Positions 1 to 47,221 of a stretch of DNA of 47,221 bases are shown here, piece by piece. Both the position numbers and the translations under genes were made by a program. Numbering within the stretch: position 1 is the first letter of the stretch; each line of letters opens with the position of its first letter. A model generated the notes under the pieces. The model had not been told where the DNA came from, made no database searches, and saw only the letters and a program-made list of their open reading frames with translations. This DNA comes from a virus. Lineage: Duplodnaviria > Heunggongvirae > Uroviricota > Caudoviricetes. The stretch lies in the IMG/VR virus record IMGVR_UViG_2660238524_000005. One strand, 5' to 3'.

Positions 1-249
1 ATGGCGGCAGCACAACCGCTGGTATTTGATGCAGAACTGGACACCGTGCGTGGGCGTCTTGGTAGCGTAAAAGGCGTTAATTACGATACGGCGATGTGGA
101 GTTCGGCAATTAACAGCCGCAACAACGTGACCACTGATGCAGGCGCTGGCTTTGAGCAAACATTGACGGGGCTAACGCTTGGTATCGACAGCCGTTTCTC
201 CCGTGAAGAAAGCAGCACAACTCAGGCGGGTGTGGTCTGGACGTTCTGA
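1..249 (+). CDS. Autotransporter-like outer-membrane beta-barrel protein, C-terminal fragment (5' end outside window)
   Basis: ORF runs from window edge; C-terminus ...QAGVVWTF ends in aromatic residue with alternating hydrophobic pattern typical of autotransporter barrels; host flank outside the prophage. Confidence 0.4.
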   Translation: MAAAQPLVFDAELDTVRGRLGSVKGVNYDTAMWSSAINSRNNVTTDAGAGFEQTLTGLTLGIDSRFSREESSTTQAGVVWTF

Positions 250-258
250 TAACAGAAA

Positions 259-291
259 ATAAACAGGCCGTGATGTGTCGCGGTCTGTTTA
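259..291 (+). terminator. Imperfect hairpin plus T-run downstream of the host ORF stop
   Basis: AAACAGGCCG...CGGTCTGTTTAT directly after stop at 249; one mismatch in stem. Confidence 0.3.
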
Positions 292-310
292 TCGAATTAA
301 ATGCAGATAT

Positions 311-340
311 AAAAAAACCAACCGCAATAGGTTGGTTTTC
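311..340 (-). terminator. Intrinsic terminator downstream of the tRNA fragment (minus strand)
   Basis: Minus-strand reading gives AACCAACC...GGTTGG stem followed by T7. Confidence 0.4.
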
Positions 341-350
341 TTGGGATTTT

Positions 351-396
351 TGGTCGGCACGAGAGGATTTGAACCTCCGACCCCCGACACCCCATG
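351..396 (-). tRNA. Partial tRNA-Pro(GGG) (proL-like): 3'-terminal 46 nt from anticodon loop to CCA; phage attachment-site core, not an intact tRNA
   Basis: Reverse complement reads CATGGGGTGTCGGGGGTCGGAGGTTCAAATCCTCTCGTGCCGACCA, matching the 3' half of enterobacterial tRNA-Pro as I recall it; upstream 30 nt cannot form acceptor or D arm (would need CGGCACG at the 5' end). Confidence 0.65.
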
Positions 397-611
397 TCAC
401 CGCGCCTGAAACGCTGGAGACCGCGCCATTGCTGGGCTGGCAGGGTGTTTCACTGTGTGCGCAAACAGTGCATAATTCGCAAAATTCACGCTATATACAT
501 CAATGAGTTAAGAGAGATTTTTCCCCACTCCTAAATGGTCAGTTTTTGGAGCATTACTATATTAATAGGTTCCGTCTATAGCACTTTTTGATTTGCTTCT
601 AATATGCTTTT

Positions 612-638
612 CTGTGGATAAGATTTAGTTATCCACAG
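612..638. promoter_or_regulatory. Perfect inverted pair of consensus DnaA boxes (TGTGGATAA-N7-TTATCCACA)
   Basis: CTGTGGATAAgatttagTTATCCACAG; both 9-mers equal the DnaA box consensus TTATCCACA; about 200 bp upstream of the ORF at 835. Confidence 0.45.
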
Positions 639-834
639 ACTTATCTCCTAAGTTTCCGAGCAGCTACATGTTTTTTGTTGATTGTTTTATGTTTGGCGTA
701 AAGTCAACAATTACTTCGCTTTTTGACCATTTTAGCCCATTGGAAATTACGATCATCTTCATGTAACCTTCTAAAACTTACTAAGATTGCAGAAGTTAAA
801 GCAACATAGCTCGTAGTTTCTTAAAGGTGATTTA

Positions 835-1602
835 ATGCCACAGCCGGCGCTAAAAGCGAACGAAATCAGCAGTGAATTAATCGATATTCTTGCGGCTCGG
901 AATACGATATCCGAAATGCAATATTTTCGTTATATCAGAGATATAGAAAAGTTGCGCGACAGCGCATCTGAGGACTATCTCAAAGCGTTGGCTAATGGTG
1001 CTTTTGGGCGTAAAGATACTGCAGTTGCATTCTTTGAAGAAGCATTGAAGCATAACAACCTGATCATTGCTCAAAATTATGTAGTTTATCTCAACGATTA
1101 CGGCAGCTTCCGTGAAGTTGAACAAGTGGTAAATCGATTAGTTGAACGTTATAACTCCCCTACGATGCTGTCCCATGCATGGGAAGCTAACTTGTTCTTG
1201 GGGCGTATTGACAAAGCGCTCTACTATGCTGAGAGATTGATAAGTATGGTAGATGAAAAGGAGGCTGAATTGGTTAAGCACCTCGCAGCCACAGCACTGG
1301 CCCAATCCACGACCTTCAAAAGTGCAACTGGAATTACTGATGAAGAACTACAGGATATTGCAAACCGCATAGTGGATATCATGGCTGACCATAAAGTTAG
1401 TCCTGTTGCTATGTCTTTCTGCTCTATCCCTGAAGAGCGTACGTCATCATATGTCATGGCAGTTAATACTGAAGATTCTGATGTTCTCTCTGATATGAAC
1501 TTGGATATAGCATTTTCTCTTGCAGAAAATGAAAGTTTGATTGGAAAACCCTTCAGCGTATGGTTTGAAGGGCGTTTGGAGGAACCTGCGCGTGCCAGTT
1601 AA
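835..1602 (+). CDS. Hypothetical protein, first gene of AT-rich two-gene cargo operon
   Basis: 255-aa ORF, SD AAAGGTGA 5 nt upstream of ATG; protein-like composition; no family recognised. Confidence 0.6.
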   Translation: MPQPALKANEISSELIDILAARNTISEMQYFRYIRDIEKLRDSASEDYLKALANGAFGRKDTAVAFFEEALKHNNLIIAQNYVVYLNDYGSFREVEQVVNRLVERYNSPTMLSHAWEANLFLGRIDKALYYAERLISMVDEKEAELVKHLAATALAQSTTFKSATGITDEELQDIANRIVDIMADHKVSPVAMSFCSIPEERTSSYVMAVNTEDSDVLSDMNLDIAFSLAENESLIGKPFSVWFEGRLEEPARAS

Positions 1603-1975
1603 TAGTTCCGATTTTATCGCTTTCGCAAAAGATTGTGAAAAGCGTAACGACGAAATTGGTTACAGAAACGCTGTCGCACGTGCGTATTATGGTGCTTATC
1701 ACCACGTACTTCCGTGTTTGACCATGGGGCCGAAAGAAAGTCACCAAGGCCTCATTGACTATCTTGTTAACGATGCTTGGAAGGGTAACGAACCTTTTGA
1801 AAAAAGAGACTTAATTGGTTTGGGGTATGCTCTTCAATCGCTTAAGGATCAGAGAATAGTTTGTGATTACAGACTTAACGACACTATTACGCCAACCCAA
1901 TCAAGCACCGCGATTAAGACTGCAGAGAAATTAATCCAGCGTTGCGCTAATATGACCAAGTCTAAAGCGTCCTAA
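1594..1975 (+). CDS. Small hypothetical protein with R-x6-H motif (HEPN-like?), translationally coupled to upstream gene
   Basis: GTG start with SD GGAGG 7 nt upstream, overlapping the stop of the 835-1602 ORF; motif RAYYGAYH; ORF track gives 1541..1975 from an upstream TTG. Confidence 0.5.
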
Positions 1976-1980
1976 TCCCC

Positions 1981-2008
1981 AAAATTGGCCTCATTTGAGG
2001 CCAATTTT
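1981..2008. terminator. Strong bidirectional hairpin terminator closing the two-gene operon
   Basis: AAAATTGGCCTCA tt TGAGGCCAATTTT, perfect 13-bp inverted repeat flanked by A- and T-runs, 6 nt after stop. Confidence 0.55.
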
Positions 2009-2034
2009 ATTATGCATTGTATTTAATTTCACCG

Positions 2035-2400
2035 TGCGGAAGCATTACCCAATCATATGGTTCCGCGTATAAATTTTCGTTGATTTCGCGTCGCTGTGGG
2101 CTATGAGCCCTTGTGGTCTACTCCCTGTTTATCAAACAAAATGCAGCTAGTGCGCGTATTTTGTGGAATGTGGGGGCGCAGCTCCATCGTCAAATTATTA
2201 CACAAGCCTAACGAATCACGGGGCAATGAAAAGTATGGCTAAGATAGGCAGGTGCGGATACCTCTTTACTGCGTTTGTTATTACGCTCGGTATACGGTGA
2301 ACGATATACGGGCAGGCAACGTTATCGCGACTGTTATCAATAATACGTTTCAGTTTGTCCTCGAACTACATCACAACCGGCTTGAAAACTAATTACTGGA
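2035..2400 (-). pseudogene. Degraded remnant of a tyrosine-integrase 3' region (paralogous to the intact int at 3553-4737)
   Basis: Nucleotide blocks align by eye with int 3608-3920 (e.g. GTATAAATTTT..GATTTCGC.TCGCT.TG and CCTCTTTACTGCGTTT); minus-strand translation gives ...KLKRIIDNSRDNVACPYIVHRIP then loses frame; no ORF of 60 aa or more. Confidence 0.55.
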
Positions 2401-2458
2401 TTTTGTGCCTCCATAATCATATGATTTAAAATGTTATTTTATAAAAAAGGAGTTGTAT

Positions 2459-3415
2459 ATGACCAATTTGTATAAGTTTATGGGAGCGGATATAATTGAT
2501 AAATTGATGATGGATGAAACACATATAGGAATAAAATTCTCTCATTTACATGAATATAATGATCCCTATGAGTTTTTCCTTACTATTGATTTTAATCGCG
2601 GTTCTGATGAGTTAGCATTTTACAATGAAATGATTGGCATGGTTACAAAACAACCAGCAACTTGTTTTACGAAAAGCCCTGTGATACCACCTATGTGGGC
2701 ACATTATGCAGGTAATTCTTCTGGTTTTGTAATAGAGATTAATGAGGAGAAGTTTAAAAAGTATTTGGATGAAATCGGCTTCCAGGATCATAGTTCAATA
2801 GCAGATGTTGAATATAAAGATTCTCCAGATACAGGTATTGAAGACATTCTGGCGAGAGCATTTCATATCTGTAAACCTCGTTATATCTACTGGCTACAAT
2901 CCTGTATAATGACAGCCGCATATTTGACAAAACAAACTTGCTGGAGTTATGAGCAGGAACGTCGCGTAATAATTAATGAGAAAGCACTTACTAAACTGAA
3001 TGACAATCTTATGCTCCTTCCGGTACCGATTAATTGTATAACTGGAGTTATAGTTGGGCACAAATCAAATGATTTATTAAAGCAGAAAATTCAATCTTTA
3101 GCTAAAAAGGCTAAATGTAGATATTTCGAAATGGTAATAGGAAAAACAACAACTACACCATTTCTTTTATCTCAAAATCTCAAATCACACCAATTTATTA
3201 ATGGCAATATAATACCTGCATCAAGGCAATGTAAAAAATGTTATGAGCCTTTAAACATGGAAAATAAAGTTTGTGGCTGGTGTGGAATTACTAATCATGA
3301 TGTGAAAATGGCAGAGTACCGTAATTCATTTCGAATGATAGCCAACTATGGTGGGCTGGATAAATATATATCATCCATGAATAAGATTACTGAAGAGTAT
3401 AATAAGGGTAAATAA
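2459..3415 (+). CDS. DUF2971-family protein with C-terminal CxxC...CxxC zinc-ribbon-like motif
   Basis: LYKF...NDPYEF and PPMWAHYAGNSSGFVIEI motifs characteristic of DUF2971 (from memory); CKKCYEP...CGWCG near C-terminus; SD AGGAG 6 nt before ATG 2459; strongly AT-rich. Confidence 0.65.
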   Translation: MTNLYKFMGADIIDKLMMDETHIGIKFSHLHEYNDPYEFFLTIDFNRGSDELAFYNEMIGMVTKQPATCFTKSPVIPPMWAHYAGNSSGFVIEINEEKFKKYLDEIGFQDHSSIADVEYKDSPDTGIEDILARAFHICKPRYIYWLQSCIMTAAYLTKQTCWSYEQERRVIINEKALTKLNDNLMLLPVPINCITGVIVGHKSNDLLKQKIQSLAKKAKCRYFEMVIGKTTTTPFLLSQNLKSHQFINGNIIPASRQCKKCYEPLNMENKVCGWCGITNHDVKMAEYRNSFRMIANYGGLDKYISSMNKITEEYNKGK

Positions 3416-3552
3416 ATTTTATTAATAAATATTGCTTTCTGGACAAGGGAGAAGTTATGGTAAATGGGCATAGAACTGCCTTTTAAATTAAGCTTTACTC
3501 TATGCCTTAGCAACCGTTATTGTCAGTCAAAATAAAGTGGAGAATTTAATAA

Positions 3553-4737
3553 CTAACCGGTTTTAATTTCTCCATGAGGGACAACAATCCAATCTATATG
3601 ATTTTTAGTATAAATTTTAGTAGATTTCGCATCGCTATGTGCCATTCGTCCCTGCGGATCAATCCCTTGTTTATCAAATAGGTGAGCTGCCAAAGCTCTT
3701 ATTTCATGGAATGTAGGTCTTTGTTCCATTGCTAGATGATTGCATAGTCCGAGTTTGTCTCGCACGGAAGAGAATGACCGACTCAAATAATCTGGTGCAA
3801 CTTGAGTTGGGTGCGAAACCTCTTTACTGCGTTTAACATGCCGTTCTGGGATTCTATGAACGACAAAGGGACTGGCCACATTGTCACGGCTATTGTCAAT
3901 TATCCGTTTCAATTCTTCACCAATTGGTATTGCAACATGTGATGCCTCCTTTTTTTGTACTTTTTGCCTATGGATGTATAGTGTACCATATATGCCATTT
4001 TGTGGTTGTTCGAACCAAACACATCCACATAAACCGTCTTTAGGTTCGCGAATTGAGTAACGGATTCGCGATACTTCGAGTCGTGCATGTGTAGTCTGCA
4101 ATGCTAGGTCCATTGCTGTTCTTAACCATGGTGCAGCGGCCTGCCTGATAGCTATAAAATGCTCGAGTGACAGGCGCCGTCTTTTCTTCTCATCAGTCCT
4201 ACGCATTTTTTTTCTGATGGCCGGGTTATCCTGCATTAGTGATTCATCGACCGCATAAGAGAACAACTTTTTAAGAAAGCTGACCTTTCTGTTCTGCACA
4301 TTTGCGGATGCGCTGGCATGATATTTGTTGATGTAGGCATTAACGTGTTCAAGTTCGATATCGCATGCCGGAACATTTACGAAAAACGCTTTTACGCGTA
4401 GAGCGTCATTTTTCCAGTCATCTAAGGTACTCTGGGAAGGTCGTTCGTCTTCGATAATTCTGGCCATTATGTGATCGACATGTTCAGCAAATGGTTTTGC
4501 TTCTCCGGTGACCCCGCCAGATTCTCTAATAAGATTATCCACTGATGGGTATAATTCTGATCGCATCCTCAGGTTGTACTCTCTGGCGATTGCAACGGCT
4601 ATTGCCCGATCCTTACCTATATTTTTCTTTTTTCCGGTAATAAGTGTGAATTTATAAACACCTCGATCTTTATCAAAAACCAGATAATCAGGAAGATGTC
4701 TGTATTCTTTTTTACGTGGCCTTGCCGCCATGGTCAT
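3553..4737 (-). CDS. int: Phage integrase (tyrosine recombinase)
   Basis: 394 aa; C-terminal catalytic region with conserved H-x-x-R and terminal Tyr context (...HEIRALAAHLF...AHSDAKSTKIYTK); adjacent to att core and overlapped by xis. Confidence 0.9.
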   Translation of the reverse strand: MTMAARPRKKEYRHLPDYLVFDKDRGVYKFTLITGKKKNIGKDRAIAVAIAREYNLRMRSELYPSVDNLIRESGGVTGEAKPFAEHVDHIMARIIEDERPSQSTLDDWKNDALRVKAFFVNVPACDIELEHVNAYINKYHASASANVQNRKVSFLKKLFSYAVDESLMQDNPAIRKKMRRTDEKKRRRLSLEHFIAIRQAAAPWLRTAMDLALQTTHARLEVSRIRYSIREPKDGLCGCVWFEQPQNGIYGTLYIHRQKVQKKEASHVAIPIGEELKRIIDNSRDNVASPFVVHRIPERHVKRSKEVSHPTQVAPDYLSRSFSSVRDKLGLCNHLAMEQRPTFHEIRALAAHLFDKQGIDPQGRMAHSDAKSTKIYTKNHIDWIVVPHGEIKTG

Positions 4738-4943
4738 CCCTCATTTATTAACTTGCGAACAGCTTGACTAACCATTGAGTCGACTCCCCATTTTTCTGTT
4801 TCGCAGACAAAAACAGAACCGTCCACGATACGCCCCATGAGCAGACCGTTCTCGACCCAGCGTTTTATCGTTCGGTTGTCAGGAATTGAGCCATTAGAGA
4901 ATTCACGGCGTCCCCATTGGCTCGCTTTCATTAGTTTTGCCAT
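4734..4943 (-). CDS. xis: Excisionase (Xis-like)
   Basis: Small basic protein MAKLMKASQWGRREF...IKRWVENGLL; SD GGAGAAA before ATG at 4943; stop overlaps int start (ATGA). Confidence 0.7.
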   Translation of the reverse strand: MAKLMKASQWGRREFSNGSIPDNRTIKRWVENGLLMGRIVDGSVFVCETEKWGVDSMVSQAVRKLINEG

Positions 4944-5004
4944 GGCTGTTTCTCCACTTAACCCGCTGCACACGGGCAGTAATATCAAATTTCAGTCCTG
5001 ATAA

Positions 5005-45019: not shown

Positions 45020-45822
45020 TTAAGCATCACGTATTGCCAACCTGATTTTTGACTGATACCAATTGGGGCCTTCTGCAATTATTTCTTCCTCAACATGCAT
45101 GATGGGATGCATTTCAATTTCAGAGTTTTTGACTTTTAGATCTAGTCCATATTTTTTTGAAATTTGTAAAACTTCATTTTTGAAATCCTTATCTGCGAAA
45201 GGTGAAATCCTTATTTCTTCCAACAGATTATTAAGAGATACAGGGACTAGTTTTCCCTTTACAGGTGGAGTGTTAAAGGTATTCTCTTGAAAAATAGCTC
45301 TAAACTCTTTTTCGTGTTCGAAAGATGGTCTCTTGTTAAAGAATACATCTGATTCTGGATTGTATTGTTTTATCCAGAAATTTTTGACGTATTTTACGTG
45401 TTTTAATTGTAGTTTGTTTAGATTATTATTTTCAAGTTGGCTTTGGAGGTTTTTTTCTTTGATTTTATGACAACGCCTTTAGCGGGGTTTTTACAATACA
45501 GCTTCCACATAGCTTCAGATTCATGTTCGTTACAATGCCAGCAACTTATATATGTCCTCTCGCTTATTTCCTTAAGTGTCTTTAAATTGAATGCCATGAA
45601 AGGCTCTAAGTCCATGCCGGCACCATGAGTAGCGCATAGTTTTTCCTGTGTCTCAATGAATTTTTTATAGCCAGTATGTCCCCAAGCAAATTCACCTTCG
45701 AACGGATCTTCAAAATTTTTTGCTGAGCAAAAAAATAAAGCATTTTGTTCGAGTAACATAGAGAATTTCTCTATGTCAAGATATCGCCATATATACTCAG
45801 TGTGCATGATAGCTCCTTGCAA
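45020..45822 (-). pseudogene. DUF2971-family gene disrupted by a frameshift at an A7 homopolymer (or needing a -1 shift)
   Basis: N-terminal 134-aa ORF has DUF2971 motifs (LFFCSAKNFEDPFEG; SEAMWKLY...KGVVIKS) and stops after the A7 run (plus-strand T7 at 45450-45456); the -1 frame is open through both segments down to 45020. Confidence 0.55.
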
Positions 45823-46018: not shown

Positions 46019-47221
46019 TTAGGCTTGTACCAACGCTTCTGTTTCTGTGAGTGAAATCTGATAGCGTTTTACTGCCTCAGCAAAGGCGTGCGCGGCATCT
46101 GCATTTGATACCATATATTCTTCAGTTACCCCTGTTTGAGAATGGAAAGTAATATTTCCATAAATGCAAATAGGGATTTGGTAGTTGTCTTTAAAACGAC
46201 GGTCTGGTGAGCCATTCTTATTCGTTTTCGCCCATGTATAACCATCTATGCGTGAGTCACTGGGAACACCTTCTTCCTCATGGAATCTTAGATATTCTGA
46301 ACTAATTTGTAATTCGCGTAAATCAATCAGAGCGAATGCTCCATCGGCTCGTGGTATGACTGCAACTCCAGGATAAAGCAAAATATCGTCTCCATTTGCA
46401 TTTTCAAACCTCATCGCACGCCCTGTAAATTGAATGAGATCCGTTGAACTAAAATCAAAGGTAACTGGGTGACGATTAACAGACCGGGTTGCTAATGTTC
46501 TTTCAGCAAACTGGTCTGTAGCTTTATCTGCAGTAATATCCCATTTTTTGACACTCGATTTTAACATATCAAATGCATGGACCATCGCTGCATATGCGCG
46601 CTGTGAAGCATCACTGCTCTCGAATGTTATGGCTATTTTTGTGCTGTCTTCCCATGAAACTAGGCGAGATATCTCAGCTTGGGTTAGGGGGAGTAGTGTC
46701 TCAAGTTCTGCGATGCGTCGTTTGTAAAACCAACGGAATAGACTTGATTTGCGTCGAGCCAGCTCGCTTTTTTGTTTTGATTCTTCGGCAAGAGCCTCTT
46801 GAAGATCTGCTTTTATCTCTGCTCTTTGTTCTCGTGCTTTAGCAATCAAATCTCGTAAAGGTAAAAGGGAGGTACTTGTAAGGACTTCTACCGAAGCGCT
46901 GGATATTTCATTCATGCCAGCTACAGGCATATATATTTTAGCGTTCGATGGTGTGTTTTCTGGAGATGACCCAGACCCCAAATGAGGTTCTGTAGGGGCT
47001 GGATTTAATGGATTGGTAACTGAGTATCCATCATCATAGGGCAAGGTAGGTGTAGTATAAGATAAGCCTGTGCCCGGTAATCCGACAGTTGCTCTAACCC
47101 CTTTTTTACCAACATTGACAGTTGCGCCAGGCATGCCAATGCTTGCACTTATTCCACGCTTGCCAATGTTGAGTCGAACGCCAGGAAATAAAGTAAAGGT
47201 TTGTCTGAAACGAAGAGACAT
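46019..47221 (-). CDS. DUF4236-domain protein (N-terminal Gly/Lys-rich repeat domain + about 340-aa unknown C-terminal domain); start at window edge
   Basis: N-terminus MSLRFRQTFTLFPGVRLNIGKRGISASIGMPGATVNVGKKGVRATVGLPGTGLSY matches DUF4236 (from memory); ATG is the last codon of the window, so the true start may lie outside. Confidence 0.5.
   Translation of the reverse strand: MSLRFRQTFTLFPGVRLNIGKRGISASIGMPGATVNVGKKGVRATVGLPGTGLSYTTPTLPYDDGYSVTNPLNPAPTEPHLGSGSSPENTPSNAKIYMPVAGMNEISSASVEVLTSTSLLPLRDLIAKAREQRAEIKADLQEALAEESKQKSELARRKSSLFRWFYKRRIAELETLLPLTQAEISRLVSWEDSTKIAITFESSDASQRAYAAMVHAFDMLKSSVKKWDITADKATDQFAERTLATRSVNRHPVTFDFSSTDLIQFTGRAMRFENANGDDILLYPGVAVIPRADGAFALIDLRELQISSEYLRFHEEEGVPSDSRIDGYTWAKTNKNGSPDRRFKDNYQIPICIYGNITFHSQTGVTEEYMVSNADAAHAFAEAVKRYQISLTETEALVQA

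Follow-up and report, generated by a model that had tools for sequence, protein, structure and literature searches.

An intact DUF2971 gene near the left end of a proL prophage

The IMG/VR record IMGVR_UViG_2660238524_000005, a stretch of 47,221 nucleotides that is referred to here, at its full length, as the window, represents a lambdoid prophage in proL, beside a truncated yejO. Approximately 2 kb from its attL core lies a gene of the DUF2971 family encoding a protein of 318 amino acids, with a predicted ADP-ribosyltransferase (ART) fold in its N-terminal part and a putative zinc ribbon near its C-terminus. We conclude that this protein is a further member, with a putative defense role, of the group of ART-fold defense proteins formed by DUF2971, the PADLOC candidate PDC-S31, and the lactococcal anti-phage protein Aristaios.

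The gene is an uninterrupted open reading frame (ORF) of 318 codons on the + strand, running from an ATG at position 2459 to a stop codon that ends at 3415 (Table 1). We took this ATG, and not the TTG at 2453, as the start because a strong Shine-Dalgarno sequence (AAGGAG) is situated 6 nt upstream of it. Positions 1–5000 of the window are 100% identical to the chromosome of Escherichia coli O25b:H4, sequence type 131 (ST131) (NZ_CP015085.1), where RefSeq annotates a "DUF2971 domain-containing protein" (WP_000183538.1) at identical coordinates. The G+C content of the gene is 33.3%, compared to 42–44% in its flanks and 49.8% in the window as a whole, and the sole terminator candidate nearby is a weak terminator-like hairpin at 3466–3481. 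A first-pass annotation made from the sequence had described an intact, strongly AT-rich DUF2971-family gene in an att-proximal position, between a decayed integrase remnant and a functional int. Each part of that description agrees with the present data: the ORF, RefSeq, and Pfam concur on the gene itself, the base composition is as proposed, the attL core was located, and both tblastn and RefSeq identify the integrase remnant.

Assignment of the protein to DUF2971 held up in a profile search. Pfam PF11185 matched residues 79–170 over its entire length (profile positions 1–89 of 89) with a score of 39.3 bits against a gathering cut-off of 22 (E = 1.8e-9), and it also matched all 27 of the relatives that we aligned. 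All five PADLOC models for PDC-S31 matched the protein as well (E from 4.9e-22 to 6.8e-07); the profiles are 208–273 positions long, and among the matches listed only residues 3–228 are covered. The gene product additionally matched the phage protein family phrog_1762 (E = 1.8e-33). The best PADLOC and PHROG matches therefore stop at about residue 228–229 and the Pfam match at residue 170. NCBIfam yielded no model for the DUF2971 protein. In the literature that we searched, WP_000183538.1 was not found, and PF11185 appeared only in the papers cited here.

A predicted ADP-ribosyltransferase core with conserved candidate catalytic residues

We read conservation from a 27-sequence alignment, which included relatives down to 34% identity, and scanned for motifs across 195 retrieved relatives. 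An AlphaFold (AF2) model built on the 27-sequence alignment, with a mean predicted local distance difference test score of 88.8 and a predicted template modeling score of 0.80, indicates that the N-terminal domain has an ART core fold, the best structural matches being DarT and Tpt1/KptA, followed by many other ART-fold structures from ADP-ribosylating toxins, RES toxins, and PARP domains. When the model was compared to the PDB with Foldseek, the top four matches were all Thermus DarT (E 0.01–0.03). Sequence searches of the PDB, with either the single protein or the family profile, gave chance matches only. The best of the family-profile matches were Arf GTPases (E 0.3–1.6), which we set aside, since these "ADP-ribosylation factors" are not ARTs and the resemblance is a coincidence of name.

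A 2025 survey placed DUF2971 in the H-Y-E clade of the ART superfamily, near DarT, AbiGi, and Tox-ART-HYD1 (PMC12522546). According to that survey, the motif I His of DUF2971 is poorly conserved, the motif II Tyr is strict, motif III takes the form ExE, and the catalytic core as a whole was judged to be well conserved. The AlphaFold model shows long helical inserts between core strands 1 and 2 and between strands 4 and 5, and the invariant E167, preceded by E165, opens the strand formed by residues 167–171. These features correspond to the survey's description of DUF2971 as an ART of the H-Y-E clade.

The first-pass annotation had singled out two motifs as characteristic of DUF2971, NDPYEF and MWAHYAGNSSGFVIEI, and we found them at residues 34–39 and 79–94, respectively. 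The second coincides with the beginning of the Pfam match at residue 79 and contains M79, W80, A81, H82, Y83, G89, and F90, all of which are invariant in the 27 relatives. Within WSYEQERR, W162, Y164, E165, E167, and R169 are likewise invariant, as are C69, F70, P78, K139, R141, A285, N289, G298, and L300 elsewhere in the protein. The pattern W-x-Y-E-x-E-x-R was near-universal among the 195 scanned relatives wherever the region was covered, including distant relatives that have no zinc ribbon. Since the motifs quoted here and the cysteine pairs described below are invariant down to 34% identity, we do not consider them to be chance occurrences. Judging from sequence position and secondary structure, Y83 and E165/E167 would be located in the active site.

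Compared codon by codon with its orthologues in Klebsiella, Enterobacter, and Pantoea, the gene has ratios of nonsynonymous to synonymous substitution rates (dN/dS) of 0.08–0.10. The ratio was 0.05–0.06 for residues 1–200 and 0.13–0.20 for residues 201–318; both parts of the protein are therefore under purifying selection, and the tail changes 2–4 times faster.

The C-terminal module

The first-pass annotation had also pointed to two CxxC pairs near the C-terminus, which are indeed present at residues 258/261 and 272/275. C258, C261, E263, P264, C272, W274, and C275 are invariant in the 27 relatives, and the arrangement C258-x2-C261-N10-C272-x2-C275 is flanked by short strands in both structure models. 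Two CxxC knuckles about 10 residues apart on β-hairpins have the appearance of a zinc ribbon, and we interpret them as such from the sequence pattern. The Pfam zinc-ribbon models DZR, DUF7575, and Zn_ribbon_15 gave sub-threshold matches only. In the scan of 195 relatives, CxxC-N(10–20)-CxxC was present in nearly every close relative of full length and was absent from all distant DUF2971 matches. Because the putative zinc ribbon is confined to the closer relatives, it marks a subfamily.

The C-terminal 90 residues lie outside the Pfam, PADLOC, and PHROG matches, and no structural match to the module was obtained. A profile of the module, searched against a collection of 5.8 billion proteins, retrieved a single 65-residue fragment. 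The module of the zinc-ribbon subfamily has not been described previously. One metagenomic protein of 263 amino acids (P0141; L142, positions 78–869) carries the zinc-ribbon module behind a different N-terminus, which gave no Pfam match and contains RRDELIH, an Rx4H-like motif as in HEPN RNases. This protein is encoded on one 899-bp contig, could be an artefact of assembly, and is treated here as a hint; this singleton is the one source of the suggestion that the module may be combined with other effectors.

The interval between attL and int

A phage arm beside attL is kept in Klebsiella aerogenes and Enterobacter (77% blastn identity to L003 7606–7788 and L063 7735–7913). In these bacteria the DUF2971 gene follows about 90–170 bp past the arm, and in Klebsiella it is succeeded by a full integrase gene. 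This order indicates that the DUF2971 gene is cargo of the current prophage, held in the slot between attL and int. Homology of the K. aerogenes and Enterobacter loci to the window restarts at 2420–2447, so positions 528–2419 must be extra material from another element.

The integrase remnant at the end of that extra material matches residues 257–392 of the working Int in two reading frames interrupted by stop codons, and RefSeq annotates it as a pseudogene ("recombinase, frameshifted, missing N-terminus"). In the working integrase, Pfam Arm-DNA-bind_1 matched above its cut-off and Phage_integrase matched weakly. We conclude that 528–2419, comprising the remnant and a TPR-like/HEPN-like gene pair, was left behind by another, related element whose cargo in this slot was different.

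Table 1. Positions of the DUF2971 gene, its parts, and the surrounding attachment-site features in the window
Feature	Position	Strand	Basis
Phage arm beside attL, kept in Klebsiella aerogenes and Enterobacter	346..527		blastn
attL core, duplicating the 46 nt at the 3' end of proL (tRNA-Pro GGG)	351..396	-	Identity with the intact proL at the far prophage end, NZ_CP015085.1
Decayed integrase gene, older than and related to the working one (3' fragment)	2022..2410	-	tblastn with the working Int
Shine-Dalgarno sequence AAGGAG, 6 nt 5' of the ATG at 2459	2447..2452	+	Sequence reading
DUF2971 coding sequence, 318 amino acids, with C-terminal zinc-ribbon module (putative); WP_000183538.1	2459..3415	+	ORF, RefSeq, profile matches
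N-terminal ART-fold domain (predicted), ~residues 1–199	2459..3055	+	Predicted structure
NDPYEF motif, residues 34–39, just past the first core strand	2558..2575	+	N34, D35, P36, and E38 invariant in 27 relatives
MWAHYAGNSSGFVIEI, residues 79–94, helix bearing Tyr83 (candidate ART motif II), then core strand	2693..2740	+	Alignment
WSYEQERR, residues 162–169, ExE (E165, E167), candidate catalytic motif III	2942..2965	+	Start of core strand
C-terminal module, residues 200–318: helix, small β-sheet, zinc ribbon, three helices (predicted)	3056..3412	+	Model
Putative zinc ribbon C258-KK-C261-EP...C272-GW-C275	3230..3283	+	Alignment
Working lambda-type tyrosine integrase gene, convergent with the DUF2971 gene	3553..4737	-	ORF, Pfam, RefSeq integrase

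Distribution and genomic context of relatives

Searching the 5.8-billion-protein collection with the protein returned 48 clusters from Enterobacterales, Pseudomonas, and Rhizobium, with full-length relatives of 303–348 amino acids at 33–99% identity. Among 1.84 billion cluster representatives, searched exhaustively, there were 562 relatives, of which 47 had E < 1e-30. When one genome per species was considered, 185 species had a relative. They range over the Alpha-, Beta-, and Gammaproteobacteria, Microbacterium, Chloroflexota, Campylobacterales, and Desulfobulbaceae, among others, which is the pattern of a patchily and horizontally spread gene.

Five of six annotated relatives occupy moron positions of a prophage or lie at the side of a P4-like satellite. 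The K. aerogenes relative (82% identity) sits in the same attL–int slot. In Morganella morganii (60%) the gene is in the nin region of a lambdoid prophage, between Dam/Lar and DUF1367/Q; in Edwardsiella tarda (52%) it lies on the opposite strand, flanked by a Q fragment and the holin gene; and in Pseudomonas syringae (41%) it is at the tail end of a prophage, again on the opposite strand. The Pantoea agglomerans relative (77%) is beside a P4-like satellite with genes for alpha primase, Ash, AlpA, Ogr/Delta, and Psu. The sixth, from Rhizobium laguerreae (38%), has no phage genes nearby. In the Pantoea locus (L012, 7001–14635), an HNH_2/DUF6650 gene separates the relative from the satellite, and a bacterial RNase A/CdiI-like pair is situated upstream.

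In IMG/VR, 47 viral contigs carry relatives, 27 of them full length. Contigs of 12 kb or more account for 23 of these full-length cases, and in 14 of the 23 the gene is within 2.5 kb of a contig end; not all of these are independent, as five are identical E. coli copies. Full-length relatives are also borne by plasmids of Shewanella, Agrobacterium, and Rhizobium; the ten genera found most often in the plasmid search did not include Lactococcus. Of 87 loci, 16 had a gene for a tyrosine or serine recombinase within 5 kb, and in six of them it was the immediate neighbor. The proposal that DUF2971 recurs in mobile-element cargo is thus borne out by prophages, satellites, viral contigs, plasmids, and recombinases alike.

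The locus of Enterobacter sp. ECC-175 (L063, 7735–12798) is reduced to about 5 kb between a proL fragment and an intact proL. This remnant holds an intact DUF2971 zinc-ribbon gene, an int fragment, a truncated SRAP gene, a DUF3037/HipA_2 kinase pair, and dinI, and so retains cargo of both prophage ends. The intact gene within so small a remnant indicates that it outlived its prophage.

To look for a partner or antitoxin, we clustered all ORFs within 5 kb of the gene in the 87 loci, and no neighbor family occurred in more than four of them. We then compared 139 immediate neighbors from 80 species to Pfam and PADLOC, the counts of which overlap. Among the most frequent Pfam families were SIR2_2, AAA_23, and ResIII (three each), followed by TIR_2, UvrD-helicase, AAA_21, HNH_2, Phage_integrase, and two transposase families (two each). 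The most frequent PADLOC matches were LmuB, ThsA, and mad3 (three each), and GajB and a DRT helicase (two each). Judged by these raw counts, which have no matched control, the neighborhoods are those of defense islands and mobile elements and not of housekeeping genes. A housekeeping family would have spoken against the first-pass annotation; defense and mobile-element neighbors were found instead.

Comparison with known systems

The closest functional precedent is Aristaios, the product of the Lactococcus plasmid gene pUCCL641_199, a DUF2971 protein of 316 amino acids with a predicted ART fold that provides anti-phage activity as a single gene (PMC11381338). Aristaios acts past DNA injection and shows an abortive-infection phenotype (PMC11381338). 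Used elsewhere as a control, it abolished the production of phage structural proteins, and phage transcription is listed as the step that it blocks (PMC12967558, PMC13064643). The gene in the window resembles Aristaios in being a single gene of similar length (318 versus 316 codons for amino acids) with a Pfam DUF2971 domain, a predicted ART fold, and a mobile-element location. The two differ in origin, a Gram-positive plasmid in one case and an enterobacterial prophage in the other, and the comparison draws on the published description of Aristaios. The first-pass annotation held that DUF2971 has no established function, a statement now outdated by the assignment to the ART superfamily (PMC12522546) and by the work on Aristaios (PMC11381338, PMC13064643).

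PDC-S31 belongs to the PADLOC phage-defense candidates, 145 proposed systems found embedded in known defense systems (bioRxiv 10.1101/2024.01.29.577857). It is a single-gene candidate ("S" series), all models of which match the protein studied here, although they do not reach its zinc-ribbon module. Relatives of our gene have the defense neighbors from which such candidates were proposed, whereas in the window itself the gene is flanked by the integrase remnant and int.

DarT (PDB 7yk3, 7omv, 8baq), of the DarTG toxin–antitoxin and defense system, shares 7–12% sequence identity with the protein and lacks its long helical inserts and its zinc-ribbon module. Searches of the 27 subfamily members with ART-family Pfam models other than DUF2971, those for DarT and AbiGi included, gave no match at E up to 10, although the HMMER filters drop most matches above ~0.1. 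The macrodomain antitoxin of DarT, DarG, is not adjacent to the gene in the window, and there was no macrodomain among the frequent neighbor families of the 80-species scan. Tpt1/KptA proteins are RNA 2'-phosphotransferases with an Arg-His-Arg-Arg catalytic tetrad in Tpt1. Tpt1 has a housekeeping role in tRNA splicing, whereas the DUF2971 gene is mobile cargo, and only 83–103 residues could be aligned between them (PDB 7yw4, 9ld3, 7yw2).

AbiGi resembles the protein as a component of lactococcal abortive infection. It works together with a second gene, AbiGii, whereas no conserved partner accompanies the DUF2971 gene in the 87 loci. AbiGi is among the families nearest to DUF2971 in sequence (PMC12522546).

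Possible role of the protein

We propose that the gene is a self-contained moron of the proL lambdoid prophage that probably protects the lysogen by abortive infection, in a manner resembling Aristaios; we put the probability of this reading at roughly 55%. The predicted fold of the N-terminal ~200 residues is nearest to DarT and Tpt1/KptA, both of which act on nucleic acids, and the invariant Tyr83 and E165-x-E167 would be positioned where ARTs bind NAD+ and catalyze transfer. Upon infection, the enzyme may use NAD+ to ADP-ribosylate nucleic acid or part of the machinery for transcription or replication, a modification that would shut off phage gene expression and sacrifice the infected cell. 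The nucleic-acid targets of DarT and Tpt1 fit the reported block of phage transcription by Aristaios. With no antitoxin gene present, such an enzyme must restrain itself, and the C-terminal zinc-ribbon module is the best candidate for keeping the enzyme inactive, detecting the phage, or binding the substrate. More tentatively, the zinc-ribbon subfamily could be an antitoxin-free, single-chain counterpart of DarT, in which a nucleic-acid ART is held off by a module that doubles as a portable phage sensor and could be joined to other effector domains; we regard this as possible and no better than that.

Several observations weigh against the proposal of a defensive moron. The structural scores are modest, though the matches are almost purely to ART-fold proteins. 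Relatives have P, Y, F, Q, or L in place of H29, which ends the strand formed by residues 22–29, next to a near-invariant S28; as the His or Arg of motif I is thus not conserved, NAD+ binding is not assured. A promoter scan of positions 1900–3700 gave sites that were no more common than in shuffled sequence, none of them positioned for the DUF2971 gene, and no convincing σ70 promoter was found upstream of it. The gene is rare in E. coli, being present in 53 of 5,426 complete genomes, always as a single chromosomal copy, and in strain GZ04-0086 an IS1 element splits the match to window positions 2400–3500 (NZ_CP042336.1 1459014–1460891). Finally, the Morganella gene is co-oriented with the early operon, an orientation that would also fit a lytic-cycle function.

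That last point leads to an unlikely alternative, in which the protein serves the phage itself, as an ART that is made during lytic growth or induction and modifies host machinery or counters host defenses. ART folds serve both sides in phage–host conflict, and Alt, ModA, and ModB of phage T4 modify host proteins. The nin-region gene of Morganella runs in the same direction as the replication, Dam, and Lar genes, so that readout from the early operon is possible, and membership in a PHROG family and occurrence on IMG/VR viral contigs would fit a phage function too. However, the genes in the window, in Edwardsiella, and in P. syringae oppose the phage operons, as is usual for autonomous lysogen genes, and an intact copy persists in the 5-kb Enterobacter remnant. 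Occurrences away from phages, on plasmids and beside Thoeris-, Lamassu-, and Gabija-type genes, also speak against this alternative, and the sole DUF2971 member that has been tested is a host defense protein.

We consider it improbable that the gene is instead kept because its loss or misregulation is harmful, whether as a selfish toxin or addiction-type gene or as a toxin that inhibits itself and has no role in defense. The DarT-like fold is suggestive here, DarT being the toxin of a toxin–antitoxin pair, as is the patchy, horizontally mobile, AT-rich character of the gene. Against this, there is no antitoxin partner, given that no neighbor family exceeds four of the 87 loci and that the flanks in the window are the integrase remnant and int, and a single-protein addiction module has no obvious means to punish its own loss. 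Purifying selection in both domains, together with the defense neighbors, fits a benefit to the host better.

About equally improbable is a catalytically dead, ART-like scaffold, in which a zinc-ribbon regulator would bind nucleic acid or protein and transfer no ADP-ribose. Without catalysis it would be difficult to account for the invariance of Y83 and the ExE pair in relatives that have diverged very far; the N-terminal domain is the more strongly constrained part, at a dN/dS of 0.05–0.06, and its core was judged to be well conserved (PMC12522546). A secreted virulence effector that ADP-ribosylates host-cell targets is the least plausible reading and can very nearly be dismissed, for although a Legionella survey proposes ~18% of DUF2971 proteins as effectors (PMC12522546) and the host strain is of the human pathogen lineage ST131, the 87 loci contain no conserved secretion-system or chaperone gene and relatives extend to soil and marine bacteria that live freely, to Chloroflexota, and to Microbacterium.

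To our knowledge, no biochemical mechanism has been established for any DUF2971 protein, and lactococcal genetics is slow. The gene described here represents the family in E. coli, where a natural prophage of a lineage with clinical importance carries it. Its product has clear candidate catalytic residues and a separable module; it makes directly testable how a DarT-like toxin may be deployed safely without an antitoxin. In addition, in lambdoid phages that integrate at proL, exchangeable cargo occupies the slot from the attL arm to int and is able to outlive the prophage, and both the exchange and the survival of cargo suggest that prophage ends are places in which to seek defense genes.

The second DUF2971 gene and other features of the prophage ends

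At the other end of the prophage, just past the tail-fiber assembly gene, a DUF2971 gene of a different type, lacking a zinc ribbon, is located at 45020–45807 on the – strand. It contains the motifs NFEDPFEGE, SEAMWKLY, and FEHEKEFR, and its N-x-x-DPFE resembles the NDPYEF of the gene near attL. Compared to E. coli strain OHT76-1, a 1-nt deletion in an A8 tract near 45456 causes a frameshift and truncation. The gene is intact in many other E. coli strains, for example in OHT76-1, encoding 246 amino acids with a Pfam DUF2971 domain. Recent duplication was considered and rejected as an explanation for the two genes, since their products share ~20% identity over 76 residues (E = 0.022). DUF2971-type cargo is therefore present at both ends of the prophage, with a single intact copy. 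The first-pass annotation was right that a second DUF2971 gene lies at the far end; what it called a paralog is a distant, frameshifted relative and not a close one.

In OHT76-1, the same right-end cargo is found in a prophage beside prfC, not proL. Beyond the broken DUF2971 gene of the window, positions 46019–47221 (– strand) encode a 400-residue DUF4236 protein (Pfam E = 7.1e-21), for which no PADLOC match was found; its start codon finishes at the final base of the window.

The gene pair within the extra material at the left end consists of an ORF at 835–1602 (+ strand), encoding a tetratricopeptide repeat (TPR)-like protein of 255 amino acids (phrog_17809, E = 3.7e-42), and an ORF at 1592–1975 (+ strand) that it overlaps, encoding a protein of 127 amino acids (phrog_5176, E = 5.8e-30) with a weak HEPN match (E = 0.099). 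Neither PADLOC nor NCBIfam matches were found for the genes in 835–1975. By appearance the pair is cargo of an older prophage, and it could be a two-gene toxin or defense pair.

The proL fragment at attL was also checked as a possible tRNA gene, and neither ARAGORN nor Rfam made a call in the window. At the attL junction (351–430, – strand), the 46 nt that are genuinely the 3' end of proL adjoin phage-derived sequence. A near-identical junction in strain VE-V11-M is labeled as a 78-nt tRNA-Pro by the annotation pipeline PGAP, and on visual inspection its 5' end could base-pair with the 3' acceptor strand. The autotransporter gene yejO, at window positions 1–249, is damaged, with ~630 bp fewer at about position 220 than in VE-V11-M, and RefSeq annotates it as a frameshifted pseudogene.

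Another viral contig (L017; IMGVR_UViG_2740892117_000010) ends where the window starts, and the gene at 2459–3412 is counted from that end; the left boundary of the window therefore looks like a boundary of prophage prediction and not a biological one. The offsets of the window's two matches to NZ_CP015085.1 differ by 1,446 bp, indicating that ~1.4 kb somewhere in the middle of the prophage, within window positions 5000–44917, is present in the window and not in NZ_CP015085.1.

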